Positions 4,229-32,024 of a DNA stretch of 32,423 nucleotides are shown here, piece after piece. Under the pieces are notes generated by a model. The model was not told the DNA's origin, did not search any database, and saw only the letters and a program-made list of their open reading frames with translations. The translations under genes were made by a program, and so were the position numbers. Position 1 is the stretch's first letter. Every line of letters starts with the position of its first letter. Source of the DNA: Candidatus Nomurabacteria bacterium (lineage in GTDB: Bacteria; Patescibacteriota; Minisyncoccia; Phycocordibacterales; UBA9973); assembly GCA_009695015.1 (NCBI GenBank), contig SIBT01000002.1, forward strand, positions 1 to 32,423. Direction: 5' to 3'.

Positions 4229-5095
4229 ATGGAAATAAAAAAACTGCCAAAAAATAAATTTCCAAAAGCACTATTAGAAATTCCACAACCTCCTGAAAAT
4301 CTTTGGATAATAGGCGATCTACCTACTGATGAAAATTTGATTTATTTATGTGTGGTTGGTTCACGCAAGTTTACCTCTTATGGACGCGAGGCTTGTGAAA
4401 AAATAATCGCTGGTTTAAAAGGTTATCCGATAGTAATAGTATCTGGTTTTGCTATTGGTATAGACACAATTGCTCACAAAAAAGCCATGCAAGTGGGACT
4501 GAAAACAATAGTATTTCCTGGTTCTGGGCTCTCGGCTCCGGCGATGTATCCAAAAACAAACTTGCGGTTAATGAAGGAAATAATCGAAAGTGGTGGATGT
4601 TTAATTTCAGAATTTGAACCTGATTTCAAGGCTACCCAATGGAGCTTTCCAATGCGAAATAGACTTATGGCAGGTATCTCAAAGGCAGTTCTCATCATAG
4701 AAGCGGAGGAAAGGTCTGGTACTCTGATCACGGCTCGGCTAACGACCGAATACAATAGAGATTTGTTGGTGGTGCCCGGATCTATCTTTTCTTCCAACTC
4801 AAAAGGCACCAATAGATTATTGAAAGCTGGTGCGATCCCTATCACATCTTCAGAAGACGTATTAGAAGCCCTTGGTTTTGAACAAGAGCGAGATGAAGAA
4901 AAACAATTAAGACTTTTTGAAGATTTATCACCTGAAGAAAAAAGAATTGTCGATCTGCTTCGTGAACCTATACCGAGAGATGATTTAATTCGTGCAATGA
5001 AACTTCCGATTCCGACAGCTAATGCGATGTTGTCTGTGATGGAAATCAAAGGACTGATAAAAGAAGAACTCGGTGAGATTAGGCTAAATGCTTAA
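4229..5095 (+). CDS. dprA: DNA processing protein DprA/Smf
   Basis: 288 aa. The Rossmann-like core VVGSRKFTSYGREACEKII...SGFAIGIDTIAHKKAM and a C-terminal winged-helix segment are present. It lies immediately upstream of topA, a common arrangement. Confidence 0.9.
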   Translation: MEIKKLPKNKFPKALLEIPQPPENLWIIGDLPTDENLIYLCVVGSRKFTSYGREACEKIIAGLKGYPIVIVSGFAIGIDTIAHKKAMQVGLKTIVFPGSGLSAPAMYPKTNLRLMKEIIESGGCLISEFEPDFKATQWSFPMRNRLMAGISKAVLIIEAEERSGTLITARLTTEYNRDLLVVPGSIFSSNSKGTNRLLKAGAIPITSSEDVLEALGFEQERDEEKQLRLFEDLSPEEKRIVDLLREPIPRDDLIRAMKLPIPTANAMLSVMEIKGLIKEELGEIRLNA

Positions 5096-9011: not shown

Positions 9012-9049
9012 GAGTTATATTCTAACACAGAATTTTTATTTTGTTTCAA

Positions 9050-9135
9050 GTGCAGTATTCTTGAATTAGTCCGAACGCATTTCGGGAAGGAAATCCCTCC
9101 GCGAAAATTCGGAAAGGCGGCGGAGCCGCACCGCT
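9050..9135 (+). repeat. 86-bp inverted repeat 'e', left copy
   Basis: gtgcagtattcttgaattagtccgaacgcatttcgggaaggaaatccctccgcgaaaattcggaaaggcggcggagccgcaccgct. It is the exact reverse complement of 9911-9996 (86/86, checked base by base). Confidence 0.95.
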
Positions 9136-9138
9136 GAC

Positions 9139-9162
9139 AATTTCAAGTTTTTCTTTGGCGGC
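9139..9162 (-). repeat. 24-bp fragment identical to recombinase codons (inverted copy of 10230-10253)
   Basis: The reverse complement of 9139-9162 is gccgccaaagaaaaacttgaaatt, identical to 10230-10253 (AAKEKLEI). It sits between the cargo ORF stop and repeat e. Confidence 0.85.
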
Positions 9163-9180
9163 AAATTCTTTAATGATTTC

Positions 9181-9831
9181 TTAATGAAGAAATTTAAAGG
9201 TCGAAAGAACACTATTGAGTAAGGCTAAAACACTACTCTCATTTACTCTCGAAATCTTAGTGTTTGTTGAGTAAGCTAAATCTGTTGTGTTAATTCTCAA
9301 AATTATTTCTAAACAACCCTGCTCATGAAGAGTTCGATACATCCAATCTTTACTTTCATGTCCGGATGATTTGAATATGCCACCCGCCGTCTCGGAGAAA
9401 GTAATATTATCGATTTGTTTTTTAGGAATAACAGTCCCAACACATTTTGCTTCGGTATCAAAACGCTTAATCACGCTTATTGCAACCGCGGCTCCCTCAA
9501 GATTTGTATCTGTGTATGATTTAGATGGAAAATATAAACATGCGACTATATCACGAGGATCACATGGATAAAAAATATTATGTGGCAAAGCTGAAATTTT
9601 TTGTCGATCCTGTTCTCCATCGTAAAATTCCCCACTTGGTGGGTAGCTTATCTCAAACCCGTATTTCTCATTTGTATATTTTTTCCAGTCAGAAACTTGA
9701 GCTAAAGCTGGAGGTTCTTGTCCTTGGTTAATGGGTGTTTGCCTCTTGGACATTATAAAATATCCACCAGCGATTATGATAGCAACGACGACAACAATCA
9801 AAATAATATTTACAAATCCTTTTTTACTCAT
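9181..9831 (-). CDS. Hypothetical membrane-anchored or secreted protein (N-terminal TM helix, extracytoplasmic domain)
   Basis: 216 aa with an ATG start. A single N-terminal hydrophobic helix (FVNIILIVVVVAIIIAGGYFI) is followed by a Cys-containing soluble domain. I recognise no catalytic motif. Confidence 0.7.
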   Translation of the reverse strand: MSKKGFVNIILIVVVVAIIIAGGYFIMSKRQTPINQGQEPPALAQVSDWKKYTNEKYGFEISYPPSGEFYDGEQDRQKISALPHNIFYPCDPRDIVACLYFPSKSYTDTNLEGAAVAISVIKRFDTEAKCVGTVIPKKQIDNITFSETAGGIFKSSGHESKDWMYRTLHEQGCLEIILRINTTDLAYSTNTKISRVNESSVLALLNSVLSTFKFLH

Positions 9832-9833
9832 AT

Positions 9834-9860
9834 GATTAAAAAATTTTCTTCCCCCAAAAT
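9834..9860 (-). repeat. 27-bp 'A box', inverted copy, 2 nt upstream of the cargo ORF ATG
   Basis: The minus strand reads attttgggggaagaaaattttttaatc, identical to the plus strand at 10093-10119. Confidence 0.9.
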
Positions 9861-9861
9861 T

Positions 9862-9910
9862 AAAATATGGTTCGAGCCGATGTTTTTCTCCGGGTTCTTT
9901 TGCGGTTTTG
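9862..9910 (-). repeat. Two abutting inverted fragments of the recombinase gene (B: 27 bp, C: 21 bp)
   Basis: 9862-9888 is the reverse complement of 11471-11497 (gaaaaacatcggctcgaaccatatttt). 9890-9910 is the reverse complement of 10274-10294 (caaaaccgcaaaagaacccgg). One nucleotide (9889) joins them. Confidence 0.9.
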
Positions 9911-9996
9911 AGCGGTGCGGCTCCGCCGCCTTTCCGAATTTTCGCGGAGGGATTTCCTTCCCGAAATGCGTTCGGACTAATTCAAGAATACTGCAC
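9911..9996 (-). repeat. 86-bp inverted repeat 'e', right copy
   Basis: Exact reverse complement of 9050-9135. It overlaps repeat D by the 4 nt GCAC (9993-9996). Confidence 0.95.
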
Positions 9997-10092
9997 CACG
10001 TAGGAAAAGTCAAAGAGTTTTGGTTCGCCTCGCTTCGCTCGGCGACCAATTGGTATTCAATTTTTGGGGTAAAAACGAATTGGCGGTTTCGC
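9993..10092 (-). repeat. 100-bp inverted repeat 'D', left copy
   Basis: Reverse complement of 11498-11597 with 99/100 identity. The single mismatch is at 10034 versus 11556. Confidence 0.95.
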
Positions 10093-10119
10093 ATTTTGGG
10101 GGAAGAAAATTTTTTAATC
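10093..10119 (+). repeat. 27-bp 'A box', 17 nt upstream of the recombinase ATG
   Basis: attttgggggaagaaaattttttaatc, identical to the minus strand of 9834-9860. Confidence 0.9.
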
Positions 10120-10136
10120 CTTAATCAAACAACAAT

Positions 10137-11645
10137 ATGAAATACATACTTTATGCGAGAAAATCTACCGAAGAAGATGACCGACAAGTGCTTTCGATTG
10201 AAGCGCAACTCGTAGAGTTGCAAGAGTATGCCGCCAAAGAAAAACTTGAAATTATCGCTTCCTTCCAGGAAGCCAAAACCGCAAAAGAACCCGGGCGAAT
10301 AAAATTCGCAGAAATGTTGTCATTGATTGAGAGAGGAAAGGCAGATGGAATTATTTCGTGGCACCCCGACCGCCTCGCGCGCAATTCGGTGGACGGCGGA
10401 AAGATTATTTATTTTGTAGATCGCGGCTTGATTCGCTCTCTAAAATTTCCCACTTTCTGGTTTGAACCGACACCGCAAGGGCTATTTATGCTGAACATTG
10501 CTTTTGGCCAATCAAAATATTTTGTAGATAATTTGCGAGAGAATGTGAAGCGAGGTTTGCGGCAGAAAATCAGGAATGGCGTATGGCCCGGCTGGGCCCC
10601 GGTTGGCTACCTAAATAATCCTAAAACTCGCGGGATTGATGTTGATAGCAAGAAAGCACTCAAAGTGAGGAAGTTGTTTGAAATGTACGCCACCGGAGCA
10701 TATACGCTTCATTCTCTCGCAAATTGGTGCAGGGAAAATGGTTTAGTCGGCAATCTCGGCAAGCCGCTTGTCATCGCCAATATTCAGAAAAATCTACAAA
10801 ATGTTTTCTACCTTGGCTTGATGAAATGGAAGAGGGAAATTTTTGAGGGAAAACACGAGCCGTTAATTTCAAAGAAACTTTTTGATTCTTGCCAAGAAGT
10901 GATGGCGAAACGCGGGAAGGTACAAGAAGTGAGAAAACACCACTTTACTTTTCTTGGCTTACTCAAATGTGCTTCGTGCGGTTGCTCCATTACTGGAGAG
11001 CGACAGAAAGGACATAACTACTATCGTTGCACCAAAAAGAAAGGTCCTTGCCAAGAAAAGCATTATCTCCGCGAGGAAGCATTAACCGAGCAAATCAAAA
11101 ACTTCTTGCAAAAAGTTTCTTTATCGAGCCAAGACACCGAGAAAGTTCTAGCGGCGTTAGATACAGAACAGGATAAAGCGAGAGAGGATGCACAAAGCGA
11201 AGTTGGGATCTTAAAAGACCAATTATCACAATTTGAGATAAAACTTCAAAGGTTGTTAGACATTTATTTAGCCGATGCTTTATCCACAGAGGAATACACC
11301 GCCAAAAAACAGAGTTTGCTGTCTCAAAAGGTCGCTCTCGTGGAGAAAATCACCGACTTTGAGCAAAAAGGATTATCTTGGCTCGAACCGGCTCGTGAGT
11401 TCGTAAAATCCTTAAATCAAGCCATAAAATTGATTGATGAGAATAATCTTTCCGAATTGCCAACATTTCTGAAAAACATCGGCTCGAACCATATTTTGCG
11501 AAACCGCCAATTCGTTTTTACCCCAAAAATTGAATACCAATTGGTCGCCGAGCGAGGCGAGGCGAACCAAAACTCTTTGACTTTTCCTACGTGGTGCCCA
11601 GGGAGAGAATCGAACTCTCATGATGTTGCCATCAATAGATTTTGA
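10137..11645 (+). CDS. Large serine recombinase (resolvase catalytic domain + recombinase domain + zinc ribbon + coiled coil)
   Basis: 502 aa ORF. The N-terminus MKYILYARKSTEEDDRQVLSIEAQ contains the catalytic Ser motif. DRLARN, WAPVGY and the zinc ribbon CASCGCSITGERQKGHNYYRCTKKKGPC are present, followed by a long coiled-coil-like segment. The frame only stops (TGA 11643-11645) after reading antisense through 54 nt of tRNA-Leu, so the native C-terminus is uncertain. Confidence 0.9.
   Translation: MKYILYARKSTEEDDRQVLSIEAQLVELQEYAAKEKLEIIASFQEAKTAKEPGRIKFAEMLSLIERGKADGIISWHPDRLARNSVDGGKIIYFVDRGLIRSLKFPTFWFEPTPQGLFMLNIAFGQSKYFVDNLRENVKRGLRQKIRNGVWPGWAPVGYLNNPKTRGIDVDSKKALKVRKLFEMYATGAYTLHSLANWCRENGLVGNLGKPLVIANIQKNLQNVFYLGLMKWKREIFEGKHEPLISKKLFDSCQEVMAKRGKVQEVRKHHFTFLGLLKCASCGCSITGERQKGHNYYRCTKKKGPCQEKHYLREEALTEQIKNFLQKVSLSSQDTEKVLAALDTEQDKAREDAQSEVGILKDQLSQFEIKLQRLLDIYLADALSTEEYTAKKQSLLSQKVALVEKITDFEQKGLSWLEPAREFVKSLNQAIKLIDENNLSELPTFLKNIGSNHILRNRQFVFTPKIEYQLVAERGEANQNSLTFPTWCPGRESNSHDVAINRF
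11498..11597 (+). repeat. 100-bp inverted repeat 'D', right copy (recombinase 3' coding end plus the last 6 nt of tRNA-Leu)
   Basis: gcgaaaccgccaattcg...cttttcctacgtggtgc, matching the reverse complement of 9993-10092 at 99/100. Confidence 0.95.
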
Positions 11646-11678
11646 GTCTATCGCGTCTACCAATTCCGCCACCTGGGC
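11592..11678 (-). tRNA. tRNA-Leu (anticodon CAA), class II with a long variable arm, CCA encoded
   Basis: Manual fold of GCCCAGGTGGCGGAATTGGTAGACGCGATAGACTCAAAATCTATTGATGGCAACATCATGAGAGTTCGATTCTCTCCCTGGGCACCA. The acceptor is GCCCAGG/CCTGGGC. The anticodon arm is ATAGA-CTCAAAA-TCTAT. The variable arm is GATG-GCAA-CATC. The T arm is GAGAG-TTCGATT-CTCTC. Confidence 0.92.
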
Positions 11679-11750: not shown

Positions 11751-11768
11751 TATCTCATATATGAGATA
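11751..11768. promoter_or_regulatory. 18-bp perfect palindrome spanning the first ATG of the HTH-MurA gene (candidate operator)
   Basis: tatctcatatatgagata is its own reverse complement. It overlaps ATG 11761 and lies 14 nt upstream of the alternative ATG at 11782. An AT-rich background lowers its significance. Confidence 0.35.
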
Positions 11769-13329
11769 TACTGTTTTTTATATGACTAAAGTAAGAAAAG
11801 AAACCGAATTAGAAATAGAGACTGAACAGCAAAAGATCGGTTATTTTATTAAAGAATTACGTGAACGACGTGGGATGACACAAGAACAGTTTGCTAAAGC
11901 CTTGAATACTTCTCAGAGTTCAATTCCACGTATGGAGAAAGGCGAGCAGAATTTTACCACAGAATTACTCCTAAAAATAAGTAACGTTTTAGATCATCAG
12001 ATAGTTTCTATAAATGATTCGATCGATTTCGAAGTAAATGGAGGTAAAAAATTAAGTGGAACGATAAAAACCAATTTTTCAAAAAATGGTTCCGTGGGGC
12101 TTCTTTGCGCTTCTCTTGTAAATAGTGGCACAACTACTCTCCATGGCATCGCCCGGATTGAAGAAGTGTTTCGTGTGATTGAAATATTAGAAAGTATTGG
12201 AGTTATTGTAAAATGGCTCAACCAGAATACTTTAACAATTACACCACCCAATAAATTTACTATAGAAAATATTAATATAGATTCAGCGATCAAGACACGT
12301 TCGATCGTGATGCTCATAGGGCCCCTCATTCACAAATTATCTTCTTTTTCTATCCCCCACGCATATGGATGCAATCTCGGTAAAAGAACTATCGCTGCTC
12401 ATATATATGCGTTAGAAGAACTTGGCGTAAAGATAAAAACAACAAACAAAAGTTATGATGTTAGTGTAAAAAAACTTAAACCAGCAAAAAATATAGTGAT
12501 GTATGAAACCGGGGAAACAGCCTGTGAAAATGTTTTGTTTGCTTCGGCTTTAATTTCCGGAGCTACCACGATAAGTTTTATGAGTAATAACTATTTCGTC
12601 CAAGAGATTTGTTTTTTCTTAGAAACATTGGGGGTAAAAATCGATGGCGTTGGTACGTCTACTTTGACCGTTCATGGGGTATCCGAAATAAATAAAAATG
12701 TCGAATATTCAAATAGTGAAGACCCGATCGAATCTATGATGTTTATTTCAGCTGGAATTATTACTGATTCACATATCATTATCACTCGCGTGCCCATAGA
12801 TTTTTTATCTTTAGAACTTGAAAAATTAAAAAGAATGAATTTGAAATACAAAATCTTAAAAAGATACTACTCACACAATGGTCGAACAAAACTCGCTGAT
12901 ATAGAAATTTTTCAAAGCAAATTGAAAGCATTACAAGATAAAATACATGCAAACATTTACCCCGGAATAAATATAGACAATCTTCCCTTCTTTGTGCCGA
13001 TAGCAATACGCGCCAAAGGACAAACGATGATTCACGATTGGTATTATGAAAATCGCGCAATCTATCTGACTGAATTAAACCGCCTCGGTGCGGAAATCAC
13101 TCTCGCAGACCCTCATCGTCTCTATATTGTAGGTGGAACAGCTCTTAAGGGCGCTCAAGTGGTTTGCCCGCCTGCCCTGCGTCCTTCGATGGTCATTTTG
13201 ATCTCTATGCTCGGAGCTAGTGGTAAATCAATCTTACGAAATGTCTATATGATAAATCGTGGTTACGAGGAAATAGCCGAACGACTAAATTCTATCGGCG
13301 CAGATATTAAAATAATCAAGGGAAACTAA
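11761..13329 (+). CDS. murA: UDP-N-acetylglucosamine 1-carboxyvinyltransferase (MurA) with an N-terminal XRE-type helix-turn-helix extension
   Basis: 522 aa. Residues ~25-80 (IGYFIKELRERRGMTQEQFAKALNTSQSSIPRMEKGEQNFTTELLLKISNVL) form a typical HTH_3/XRE motif. The rest aligns to MurA: GGKKLSGTIKTNFSKNGS (Lys22 region), YGCNLGKRTIAAHI (Cys115/Arg120 loop), YPGINIDNLPFF (Asp305 region) and INRGYEEIAERLNSIGADI (Arg397 region). The start may be ATG 11761 or 11782. Confidence 0.85.
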   Translation: MRYTVFYMTKVRKETELEIETEQQKIGYFIKELRERRGMTQEQFAKALNTSQSSIPRMEKGEQNFTTELLLKISNVLDHQIVSINDSIDFEVNGGKKLSGTIKTNFSKNGSVGLLCASLVNSGTTTLHGIARIEEVFRVIEILESIGVIVKWLNQNTLTITPPNKFTIENINIDSAIKTRSIVMLIGPLIHKLSSFSIPHAYGCNLGKRTIAAHIYALEELGVKIKTTNKSYDVSVKKLKPAKNIVMYETGETACENVLFASALISGATTISFMSNNYFVQEICFFLETLGVKIDGVGTSTLTVHGVSEINKNVEYSNSEDPIESMMFISAGIITDSHIIITRVPIDFLSLELEKLKRMNLKYKILKRYYSHNGRTKLADIEIFQSKLKALQDKIHANIYPGINIDNLPFFVPIAIRAKGQTMIHDWYYENRAIYLTELNRLGAEITLADPHRLYIVGGTALKGAQVVCPPALRPSMVILISMLGASGKSILRNVYMINRGYEEIAERLNSIGADIKIIKGN

Positions 13330-17307: not shown

Positions 17308-17380
17308 GGCGGGCCCACGAGGAATCGAACCTCGGTCTTTCCTTTTGGAGAGGAAAATTCTACCGCTAAACTATGGACCC
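17308..17380 (-). tRNA. tRNA-Trp (anticodon CCA)
   Basis: Manual fold of GGGTCCATAGTTTAGCGGTAGAATTTTCCTCTCCAAAAGGAAAGACCGAGGTTCGATTCCTCGTGGGCCCGCC. The anticodon arm is TTCCT-CTCCAAA-AGGAA. The T arm is CGAGG-TTCGATT-CCTCG. Only CC of the CCA end is encoded. Confidence 0.9.
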
Positions 17381-31932: not shown

Positions 31933-31952
31933 ATTGTGTTTATAATATTCTG

Positions 31953-32024
31953 TGAGCGTGGATGGGATCGAACCATCGGCCTCTGTCTTATCAGGACAGC
32001 GTTCTACCACTGAACTACACGCTC
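31953..32024 (-). tRNA. tRNA-Ile (anticodon GAU), CCA not encoded
   Basis: Manual fold of GAGCGTGTAGTTCAGTGGTAGAACGCTGTCCTGATAAGACAGAGGCCGATGGTTCGATCCCATCCACGCTCA. The anticodon arm is CTGTC-CTGATAA-GACAG. The T arm is GATGG-TTCGATC-CCATC. Confidence 0.9.

Follow-up and report, generated by a model that had tools for sequence, protein, structure and literature searches.

The stretch analysed here, positions 1-32,423 of contig SIBT01000002.1 from a Candidatus Nomurabacteria bacterium (assembly GCA_009695015.1; 32,423 nucleotides, henceforth termed the window), carries at positions 9050-11597 what we regard, with a probability of roughly 70%, as the integrated copy of a bipartite mini mobile element that uses its own large serine recombinase. 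The element abuts the 3' end of a tRNA-Leu gene and consists of two modules, each enclosed in its own long inverted repeat: a cargo cassette (A...A') and a recombinase module (B...B'). Mini mobile elements of this build are common in Patescibacteria, the candidate phyla radiation (CPR) bacteria. The locus had been singled out by an original prediction, made from the letters of the sequence, that read its junctions as attL, attR and an inverted attP.

Junctions and inverted repeats of the element

The three junction strings on which the original prediction was built are all present in the window. The left outer joint (attL) reads ttgtttcaa/GTGC/agtattc at 9041-9060, the right outer joint (attR) reads cctacgtg/GTGC/ccaggg at 11586-11603, and the internal joint, cctacgtg/GTGC/agtattc, is the reverse complement of 9986-10004. 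The direct repetition of GTGC at both outer borders (9050-9053 and 11594-11597) stands as well. With X denoting the outer flank, T the tRNA, and a and b the arm ends adjoining the core, the joints can be written as X/a (attL), b/T (attR, at the tRNA-Leu 3' end) and an inverted internal b/a. Given the internal GCAC, we estimate the chance of finding GTGC on both outer flanks at about (1/256)^2.

Exact-match mapping resolved the repeats that surround these joints. Positions 9050-9135 are the exact reverse complement of 9911-9996 (arm A, 86 nt), and 9993-10093 is reverse-complementary to 11497-11597 over 101 nt with one mismatch (arm B). The arms had been described as perfect, which is true of A (100%) and untrue of B. 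Repeats of this length are far beyond chance, and the two pairs overlap by precisely the 4-nt core, GCAC at 9993-9996. Four extra exact inverted copies, which we term boxes s', r', q' and p', had been overlooked (Table 1). As a consequence of this layout, the segment 9834-9996 is almost wholly made of inverted copies of other element parts, with single-nucleotide spacers at 9861 and 9889; taken alone, such a mosaic would suggest a chimera.

Table 1. Coordinates of the features at the tRNA-Leu locus (window positions).
Feature	Position	Strand	Remarks
attL core GTGC, junction X/a	9050..9053	.	crossover predicted at GC
Arm A, outer copy	9050..9135	+	a half-site (T-arm mimic); minus-strand terminator-like hairpin after cargo gene
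Box s'	9139..9163	-	exact inverted copy of 10229-10253 (recombinase nt 93-117); just past cargo stop
Cargo gene, 216 aa	9181..9831	-	weak PsbP_2 match; hydrophobic, transmembrane-like N-terminal stretch (read from translation)
Leader open reading frame (ORF), 88 aa	9828..10094	-	runs B'-A-p-q-r; TGA overlaps cargo ATG
Box r'	9834..9860	-	exact inverted copy of 10093-10119; ends 2 nt before cargo ATG
Box q'	9862..9888	-	exact inverted copy of 11471-11497 (recombinase nt 1335-1361)
Box p'	9890..9910	-	exact inverted copy of 10274-10294 (recombinase nt 138-158)
Arm A, inner copy (A')	9911..9996	-	gives -10 element and 5' leader of predicted cargo transcript
Promoter-like site over b/a joint	9985..10013	-	-35 TTGACT 10013-10008, 17-nt spacer, -10 TATTCT 9990-9985
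Core of internal inverted attP-like joint	9993..9996	.	GCAC on plus strand
Arm B	9993..10093	+	inverted non-coding copy of recombinase 3' end; -35 element, G+C-rich hairpin
Box r	10093..10119	+	27 nt upstream of recombinase gene
Large serine recombinase, 502 aa	10137..11645	+	contains boxes s 10229-10253, p 10274-10294, q 11471-11497
Arm B'	11497..11597	+	encodes conserved recombinase C-terminal tail; holds b half-site; supplies CA completing tRNA CCA
tRNA-Leu(CAA), target gene	11592..11678	-	intact; Rfam 61 bits
attR core GTGC, junction b/T	11594..11597	.	repeats the attL core

Recurrence across Patescibacteria

The recombinase has more than 7,900 homologues. The best 120 are 79-89% identical to it, and every one of these that bears a source name belongs to a Patescibacteria/CPR lineage. 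Species representatives of GTDB (one genome per species) contain 552 relatives, from which we retrieved 80 loci for self-comparison of their layout (L numbers below are labels of loci). The same arrangement recurs in these relatives: an A pair surrounds a segment of 0.6-2.1 kb, a B pair surrounds the recombinase gene, and copies of s', r', q' and p' occupy the same places. Wherever both repeat pairs were found, the three-junction pattern was found too (37/37 loci), with b/a inside, b/T and X/a outside, and a shared core of 2-7 nt. The reading as attL, attR and inverted attP is thereby borne out beyond the window, and the two traits that the original prediction had flagged as unexplained, the retained inverted joint and the long arms, turn out to be conserved in the family rather than accidents of one copy.

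The layout is present in dozens of metagenome-assembled genomes (MAGs) and metagenome contigs from differing projects and assemblers, with lineage-specific sequence differences, and several MAGs carry two or three copies. Many related contigs end within the element, which is therefore probably a common cause of fragmented Patescibacteria assemblies. Viral contigs yielded two partial matches only, and a phage origin was dropped on these grounds. The searchable literature contained neither a description of the family nor a serine integrase of such architecture.

A G+C-rich hairpin in B and B' (10030-10055 and 11535-11560) is kept by compensatory changes between lineages, for instance GCCTCGC-AGA-GCGAGGC in L047 and GCCGAC-TTT-GTCGGC in L051. 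The peptide encoded there is variable, and in L010 the loop is enlarged by an insertion of 21 nt. When the arms were compared with Rfam families, the tRNA was the sole known RNA found.

Target tRNA genes and attachment half-sites

In the relatives, attR adjoins the 3' end of tRNA genes of at least 12 species (Gly, Tyr, Arg, Leu, Ile, Phe, Glu, Met, Asn, Val, Gln and Ala), and the target tRNA always lies on the strand opposite the recombinase. The outer joint of the a arm, on the other side, meets unrelated flanking DNA from locus to locus, and the information content of the outer flank X is close to 0 bits. At the junctions, the shared bases correspond to the tRNA end (GCACCA and variants) read in reverse complement; the encoded CCA is brought by arm B'. 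In the window, the tRNA-Trp and tRNA-Ile genes (17308-17380 and 31952-32024) lack an encoded CCA; tRNA-Leu has one because the element supplies it, and the CCA-less state of the other two fits the empty site that had been predicted, with tRNA-Leu directly upstream of parB.

Alignment of the half-sites gives a consistent picture of the target. The motif YNGARC begins at +18 in the a arm (28/28 loci) and TYGARY at +13 in the tRNA (30/30), and GAAT is equidistant from the core in both. The a arm thus mimics the tRNA T-arm, with the TCGAAC-type motif placed 5 bp farther from the crossover. An outward offset of 5 bp of the attP half-site motif relative to that of attB is typical of large serine recombinases, and work on the LI integrase reportedly found the distal motif 5 bp farther out in attP than in attB half-sites. 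The offset in the a arm is therefore good support for ordinary attP x attB integration in which mainly the tRNA half is read. Together, the aligned sites show a target that is predicted to be recognised mainly via the T-arm/acceptor half-site of the tRNA, a half-site that the a arm copies with a 5-bp shift.

In L013, L040 and L091, b is joined to another a-type arm. Such tandem junctions would be expected if attR retained the tRNA half-site and could serve as a target a second time. The arm that follows B' in L013 and L040 (proteins P0042 and P0064) belongs to a second, different a-type family (VYFTKL...), which suggests a related element type sharing the same sites.

The recombinase

The original prediction had described a large serine recombinase ORF that stops inside the tRNA on the opposite strand, and both statements proved correct for the ORF at 10137-11645. 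The frame reads through B' to a stop within the tRNA, and its translation matches Resolvase, Recombinase and Zn_ribbon_recom domains: the resolvase catalytic domain PF00239 at residues 4-150 (E=4e-21), followed in the C-terminal part by PF07508 (E=4e-13) and PF13408 (E=5e-9). The N-terminus is MKYILYARKSTEEDD, with Ser10 in the YxRxS context expected for the serine nucleophile, and there is a match to the C-terminal domain of the A118 integrase as well (E=3e-6). The closest solved relatives, distant ones, are the A118/LI integrase and SPbeta SprA, and weak matches of the CcrB/XisF type were obtained as well. Among the element ORFs there was no candidate for a directionality gene.

Some parts of the gene stand out at the nucleotide level. 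Islands at 10869-10886, 11109-11122 and 11382-11398 show 98-99% conservation over 55 loci, far above the gene average, and 10871-10884 and 11109-11122 are perfectly complementary to one another. Recombinase variants P0063 and P0081 have in-frame N-terminal deletions; the deletion in P0063 falls between the similar direct repeats s and p.

A promoter-like site across the internal joint

A consensus scan identified a promoter-like site that spans the internal b/a joint and points toward the cargo gene (Table 1). Its -35 hexamer lies in arm b, its -10 hexamer in arm a, and the crossover core within the spacer. The pattern TTGNNN-17-NANNNT is in register at the internal joint in 36/37 loci, across -10 hexamers as different as TATTCT, TATTTT, GATACT, GATAAT, GACAAT, GATATT, CATAAT and others. 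The most informative positions are TTG and, in the -10 hexamer, A2, T3 and T6, a profile that, judged from the alignment, looks like the usual sigma-70 signature. Integration splits the outer copy of the site: b/T retains the -35 hexamer only, and X/a the -10 hexamer only. Downstream of the promoter-like site follow A, p, q, r and the cargo gene.

This region contains a leader ORF that is annotated as a gene in 310 database proteins. Almost all of the 120 matches that we examined from these 310 begin at the r'/B' junction, i.e., they represent the canonical state. A short frame that starts in box r (TTG GGG GAA GAA AAT TTT TTA ATC...) closes with a TGA overlapping the following ATG as ATGA. 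This overlap precedes both the cargo gene (9828-9831) and the recombinase gene (10137-10140), and it also occurs upstream of the recombinase in several relatives, a recurrence that suggests possible translational coupling to a leader peptide.

Cargo genes

The segment between A and A' holds a single real gene, which in the canonical arrangement is always divergent from the recombinase. For 19 loci the cargo ORF could be placed automatically: it is a single gene on the minus strand, separated from r by 0-27 nt in 17 loci and by 46 and 66 nt in the remaining two, and begins ca. 150-245 nt (mostly 150-190) beyond the core. Long ORFs on the opposite strand of the cargo segment were discarded as spurious; they cluster just via the shared r'q'p' region. 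Cargos are unrelated between loci and include a HIT hydrolase, S-adenosylmethionine (SAM) methyltransferases, NUDIX, radical SAM, AHSA1/SRPBCC, short-chain dehydrogenase/reductase (SDR), FAD oxidoreductase, DUF218 and HNH proteins. Even elements with ca. 95% identical arms, such as L001 and L025, differ in cargo. The cargo of the window has N-terminal and C-terminal (STFKFL) motifs in common with the cargos of L012 and L066.

Our database look-up returned no record for the cargo protein of the window, its recombinase or a neighbouring MurA-like protein. The 522-aa ORF at 11761-13329 encodes an unusual fusion of an N-terminal XRE-type helix-turn-helix with a full 5-enolpyruvylshikimate-3-phosphate (EPSP) synthase/MurA-fold domain.

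Isomers, derivatives and evolution of the arms

The recombinase module is flipped in L081, L082, L085 and L088. L085 is a complete integrated flipped copy on a 10.6-kb contig, with a tRNA at attR. In the flipped state, the tRNA precedes the recombinase gene in the same orientation, the cargo gene shares this direction, and the recombinase frame runs into arm A with the tail WCSILELVRTHF... Arm A may encode an alternative recombinase tail, given that in most loci its frame stays open over most or all of the arm; the variable middle of the arm, however, tracks a G+C hairpin rather than a peptide. Flipped copies are rare. Every informative GTDB locus is canonical, and no long recombinase fusion of this type turned up among the 120 leader-ORF proteins examined of the 310 matches. 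Scanning metagenomes for "q, ~110 nt, then a", an order that the canonical arrangement does not contain, gave 11 contigs, among them L082, L085 and L088.

Further derivatives combine or truncate the modules. L092 carries a recombinase module between two cargo modules, and L083/L089 a cargo module with a q-B' stub only and no recombinase. L086 encodes a mini-recombinase with a deletion precisely between p and q, L021 is a copy deleted precisely from r to s, and L071 is a simple X/A-p-recombinase (3' part) copy. In L036 (4795-4864), an "empty" A module of ca. 35 nt of arm a plus its inverted copy forms a 70-nt palindrome from the outer flank to arm B. The B repeat is expanded inward via a 14-nt internal inverted repeat in L052 and L087, and L055 has the start of a recombinase gene in the cargo slot (the contig ends after ca. 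50 nt). The breakpoints of the derivatives fall on box boundaries, and we read them as homology-driven rearrangement at repeated boxes. Box s' is broken by a palindromic insert of ca. 50-90 nt in two unrelated loci, L058 (~4440-4530) and L090 (~336-420); in L090 an ATG follows the interrupted s' in the direction of the recombinase, and in L058 there is a very short, doubtful ORF only.

Median identity of the arm copies within a locus is 98.9% for B and 100% for A, compared with ca. 72% between loci, which suggests that the arms are homogenised or selected for perfect complementarity. Compared between loci, boxes s, p and q rank with the better-conserved parts of the gene and recur near-identically, and the core of box r is conserved in the upstream alignment. 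Concerted evolution of the short boxes was dropped as unneeded, given that s, p, q and r are strongly conserved between loci anyway. Distances computed for A arms, B arms and recombinases are about equally correlated (Spearman 0.45-0.50), so the element appears to be inherited mostly as a unit, with the cargo between r and s exchanged. The idea that the two modules move independently found no support in these correlations.

Proposed mechanism and alternative explanations

In the mechanism that we propose, a circular form would have been inserted by its own recombinase through recombination of attP (b/a) with the tRNA 3' end (attB, X/T). Crossover inside the shared GTGC, most likely at GC, would yield attL (X/a) and attR (b/T), and the tRNA would be left intact and gain an encoded CCA. 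Because the modules abut, a second full b/a site lies inverted between them. In the integrated state, this internal b/a may act as a full sigma-70-type promoter that transcribes the leader A-p-q-r and then the cargo gene. As the flipped relatives show, the recombinase module can invert between B and B', which changes both its upstream context and the encoded C-terminal tail, and recombination or gene conversion between the ca. 100-bp arms could account for inversion as well as homogenisation.

Several observations weigh against this reading. An intact internal attP is superfluous for ordinary serine-integrase biology, and the model leaves the ca. 90-100-bp length of the arms and the copying of p, q, r and s unaccounted for. 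Serine integrases are not known to recombine attP with attR, and the inversions may therefore arise independently of the recombinase. The promoter is a prediction from base sequence, and its conservation could stem from recombinase binding by the same bases; for the recombinase itself, a search for a sigma-70 promoter within B-r gave no convincing candidate. We found no empty tRNA-Leu/parB site, circular junction or excision product for the locus, and the sole other contig with the same parB protein, a short one from the same strain, shows the same insertion and breaks inside arm A. The circle-compatible contigs L084, L088 and L090 equally fit tandem copies or repeat-induced contig breaks.

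A more far-reaching version, which we consider doubtful, would see in the family a serine-recombinase gene-cassette platform: inverted-repeat modules with one variable gene each, strung onto tRNA genes around a promoter-bearing attP, in which programmed flipping retargets the promoter or the recombinase gene. Flips might proceed via B/B', via the 27-bp r'/r pair or by action of the recombinase on hybrid sites, and would toggle between "cargo on, recombinase silent" and "recombinase on, mobile".

It is unlikely, though worth weighing, that the locus instead arose from two separately mobile circles, A...A' and B...B', each closed by a palindromic a'/a or b/b' joint and inserted side by side at a polarity-free GC, which would make the internal joint merely the border between two elements. 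The modules do occur in other combinations (L092, L083/L089 and L055), the recombinase module is found in either orientation, cargo differs behind nearly identical arms (L001, L025), and the minimal shared core in GTGC lineages is GC, which is palindromic. However, several lineages of the same layout with non-palindromic dinucleotides at that position (GTCC, GCTC, GTAC, GTGG) cannot close a palindromic circle, the about equal correlation of arm and recombinase distances speaks for inheritance mostly as a unit, and A modules at a tRNA were never seen on their own, without any B' sequence. We judge it very improbable that the recombinase is the invertase of a resident switch that acts on inverted repeats and toggles expression of the cargo against that of the recombinase or a neighbour. 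Inverted repeats do enclose the recombinase gene, whose segment occurs in either orientation among relatives, and the perfect 27-bp r'/r repeats, one candidate pair for such a switch, each stand directly upstream of one of the two divergent genes and bracket the promoter-bearing 232-bp segment 9861-10092. Yet insertion at no fewer than 12 tRNA species, with unrelated outer flanks and in several copies per genome, calls for mobility, the protein is of the 502-aa integrase type and not a ca. 190-aa invertase, and the state with the promoter toward the recombinase was met in 0 of ca. 50 informative loci and in 0/120 of the leader ORFs examined (of 310 matches). The recurrent leader tail "IIKSKIIN" proved to stem from a frequent cargo of 229 aa in canonical position.

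A single-stranded route is about as improbable. Here the circle would fold such that B'/A pairs with A'/B in a 187-bp duplex that rebuilds a double-stranded attP and promoter, as in the CTXphi/XerCD system. The two joints are exact reverse complements over ca. 187 nt, the arms are near-perfectly complementary within an element and diverged between elements, and, by analogy with CTXphi, replication after a single-strand exchange would leave precisely such a structure, with an untouched inverted internal copy. Serine recombinases, however, cut all four strands at once, and on a folded stem this would give hairpin-capped chromosome ends. Furthermore, the element has no gene for replication, transfer or the making of single-stranded DNA, cargo and recombinase lie on opposite strands so that neither single strand could express both, and viral contigs gave just the two partial matches. 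The chance that the locus is an assembly or whole-genome-amplification chimera, the alternative raised by the original prediction, is next to nil: all duplicated pieces are inverted and abutting, a pattern that chimeras can show, and related contigs often end inside the element, but recurrence of the full multi-part layout across projects, assemblers and lineages refutes this origin. Integration of a mini element by its own recombinase remains the reading that we prefer.

Implications

Gene flow in Patescibacteria, a group with tiny genomes and few recognised mobile elements, is sparsely documented. If correct, this reading would contribute a class of mobile element that is self-contained and very small, and also frequent, with 552 relatives in species representatives and thousands in metagenomes. 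Serine integrases are used for one-step DNA insertion, normally at pre-installed landing sites only; an integrase that reads the near-universal T-arm/acceptor end of tRNA genes and accepts any sequence opposite would be of practical interest. The split promoter in the attachment site and the double inverted-repeat design offer testable regulatory ideas that we did not find described for this enzyme class.

Comparison with known systems

The enzyme and its basic reaction are of a known kind. As in other large serine integrases (A118/LI Int, phiC31, Bxb1, SPbeta SprA, CcrAB, XisF), Resolvase, Recombinase and zinc-ribbon domains follow in this order, the shared core is short, and the half-site motif of the element lies 5 bp farther out than that of the target. 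Serine integrases usually insert into protein-coding genes, and it is tyrosine integrases that typically use tRNA sites, whereas the present family targets the 3' ends of many tRNA genes. The element further differs from those systems in its size of ca. 2.5 kb without phage or conjugation genes, in its conserved second, inverted attP and inverted arms of 86-101 bp, and in its unconserved outer target half-site.

Other parallels are partial. Circle junctions of IS911, IS2 and IS30 likewise bring together a -35 hexamer on one end and a -10 hexamer on the other into a promoter upon joining, but there the enzyme is a DDE transposase; here it is a serine recombinase, and an assembled promoter copy is kept permanently inside the integrated element, facing the cargo and not the recombinase. 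As with Hin, Gin and Cin, the recombinase gene sits in a segment that inverted repeats enclose and that occurs in either orientation; unlike them, the present system is mobile and tRNA-targeted and has repeats of ca. 100 bp instead of 26-34 bp. Assignment to the small serine invertases (ca. 190 aa, C-terminal helix-turn-helix) was discarded in view of the 502-aa length and the integrase-type C-terminal domains. In the Mx8 intP/attP arrangement, crossover also occurs at the 3' end of the recombinase frame and integration alters the C-terminal tail; Mx8 Int is, however, a tyrosine recombinase, and there is no duplicated inverted site. Integron cassettes resemble the cargo slot as very diverse single genes, with no recognisable promoter of their own, in a fixed position behind a shared promoter and leader. 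An integron was nevertheless rejected: the sole recombinase in the element is a serine recombinase, and both an IntI tyrosine recombinase and attC are lacking. As a rule, each element also has just one cassette. As far as we can tell, four traits are new: the targeting of tRNA ends across many isoacceptors, the split promoter in attP together with its permanently assembled inverted copy, a modular build with two inverted-repeat pairs, and a cassette slot for a single gene.

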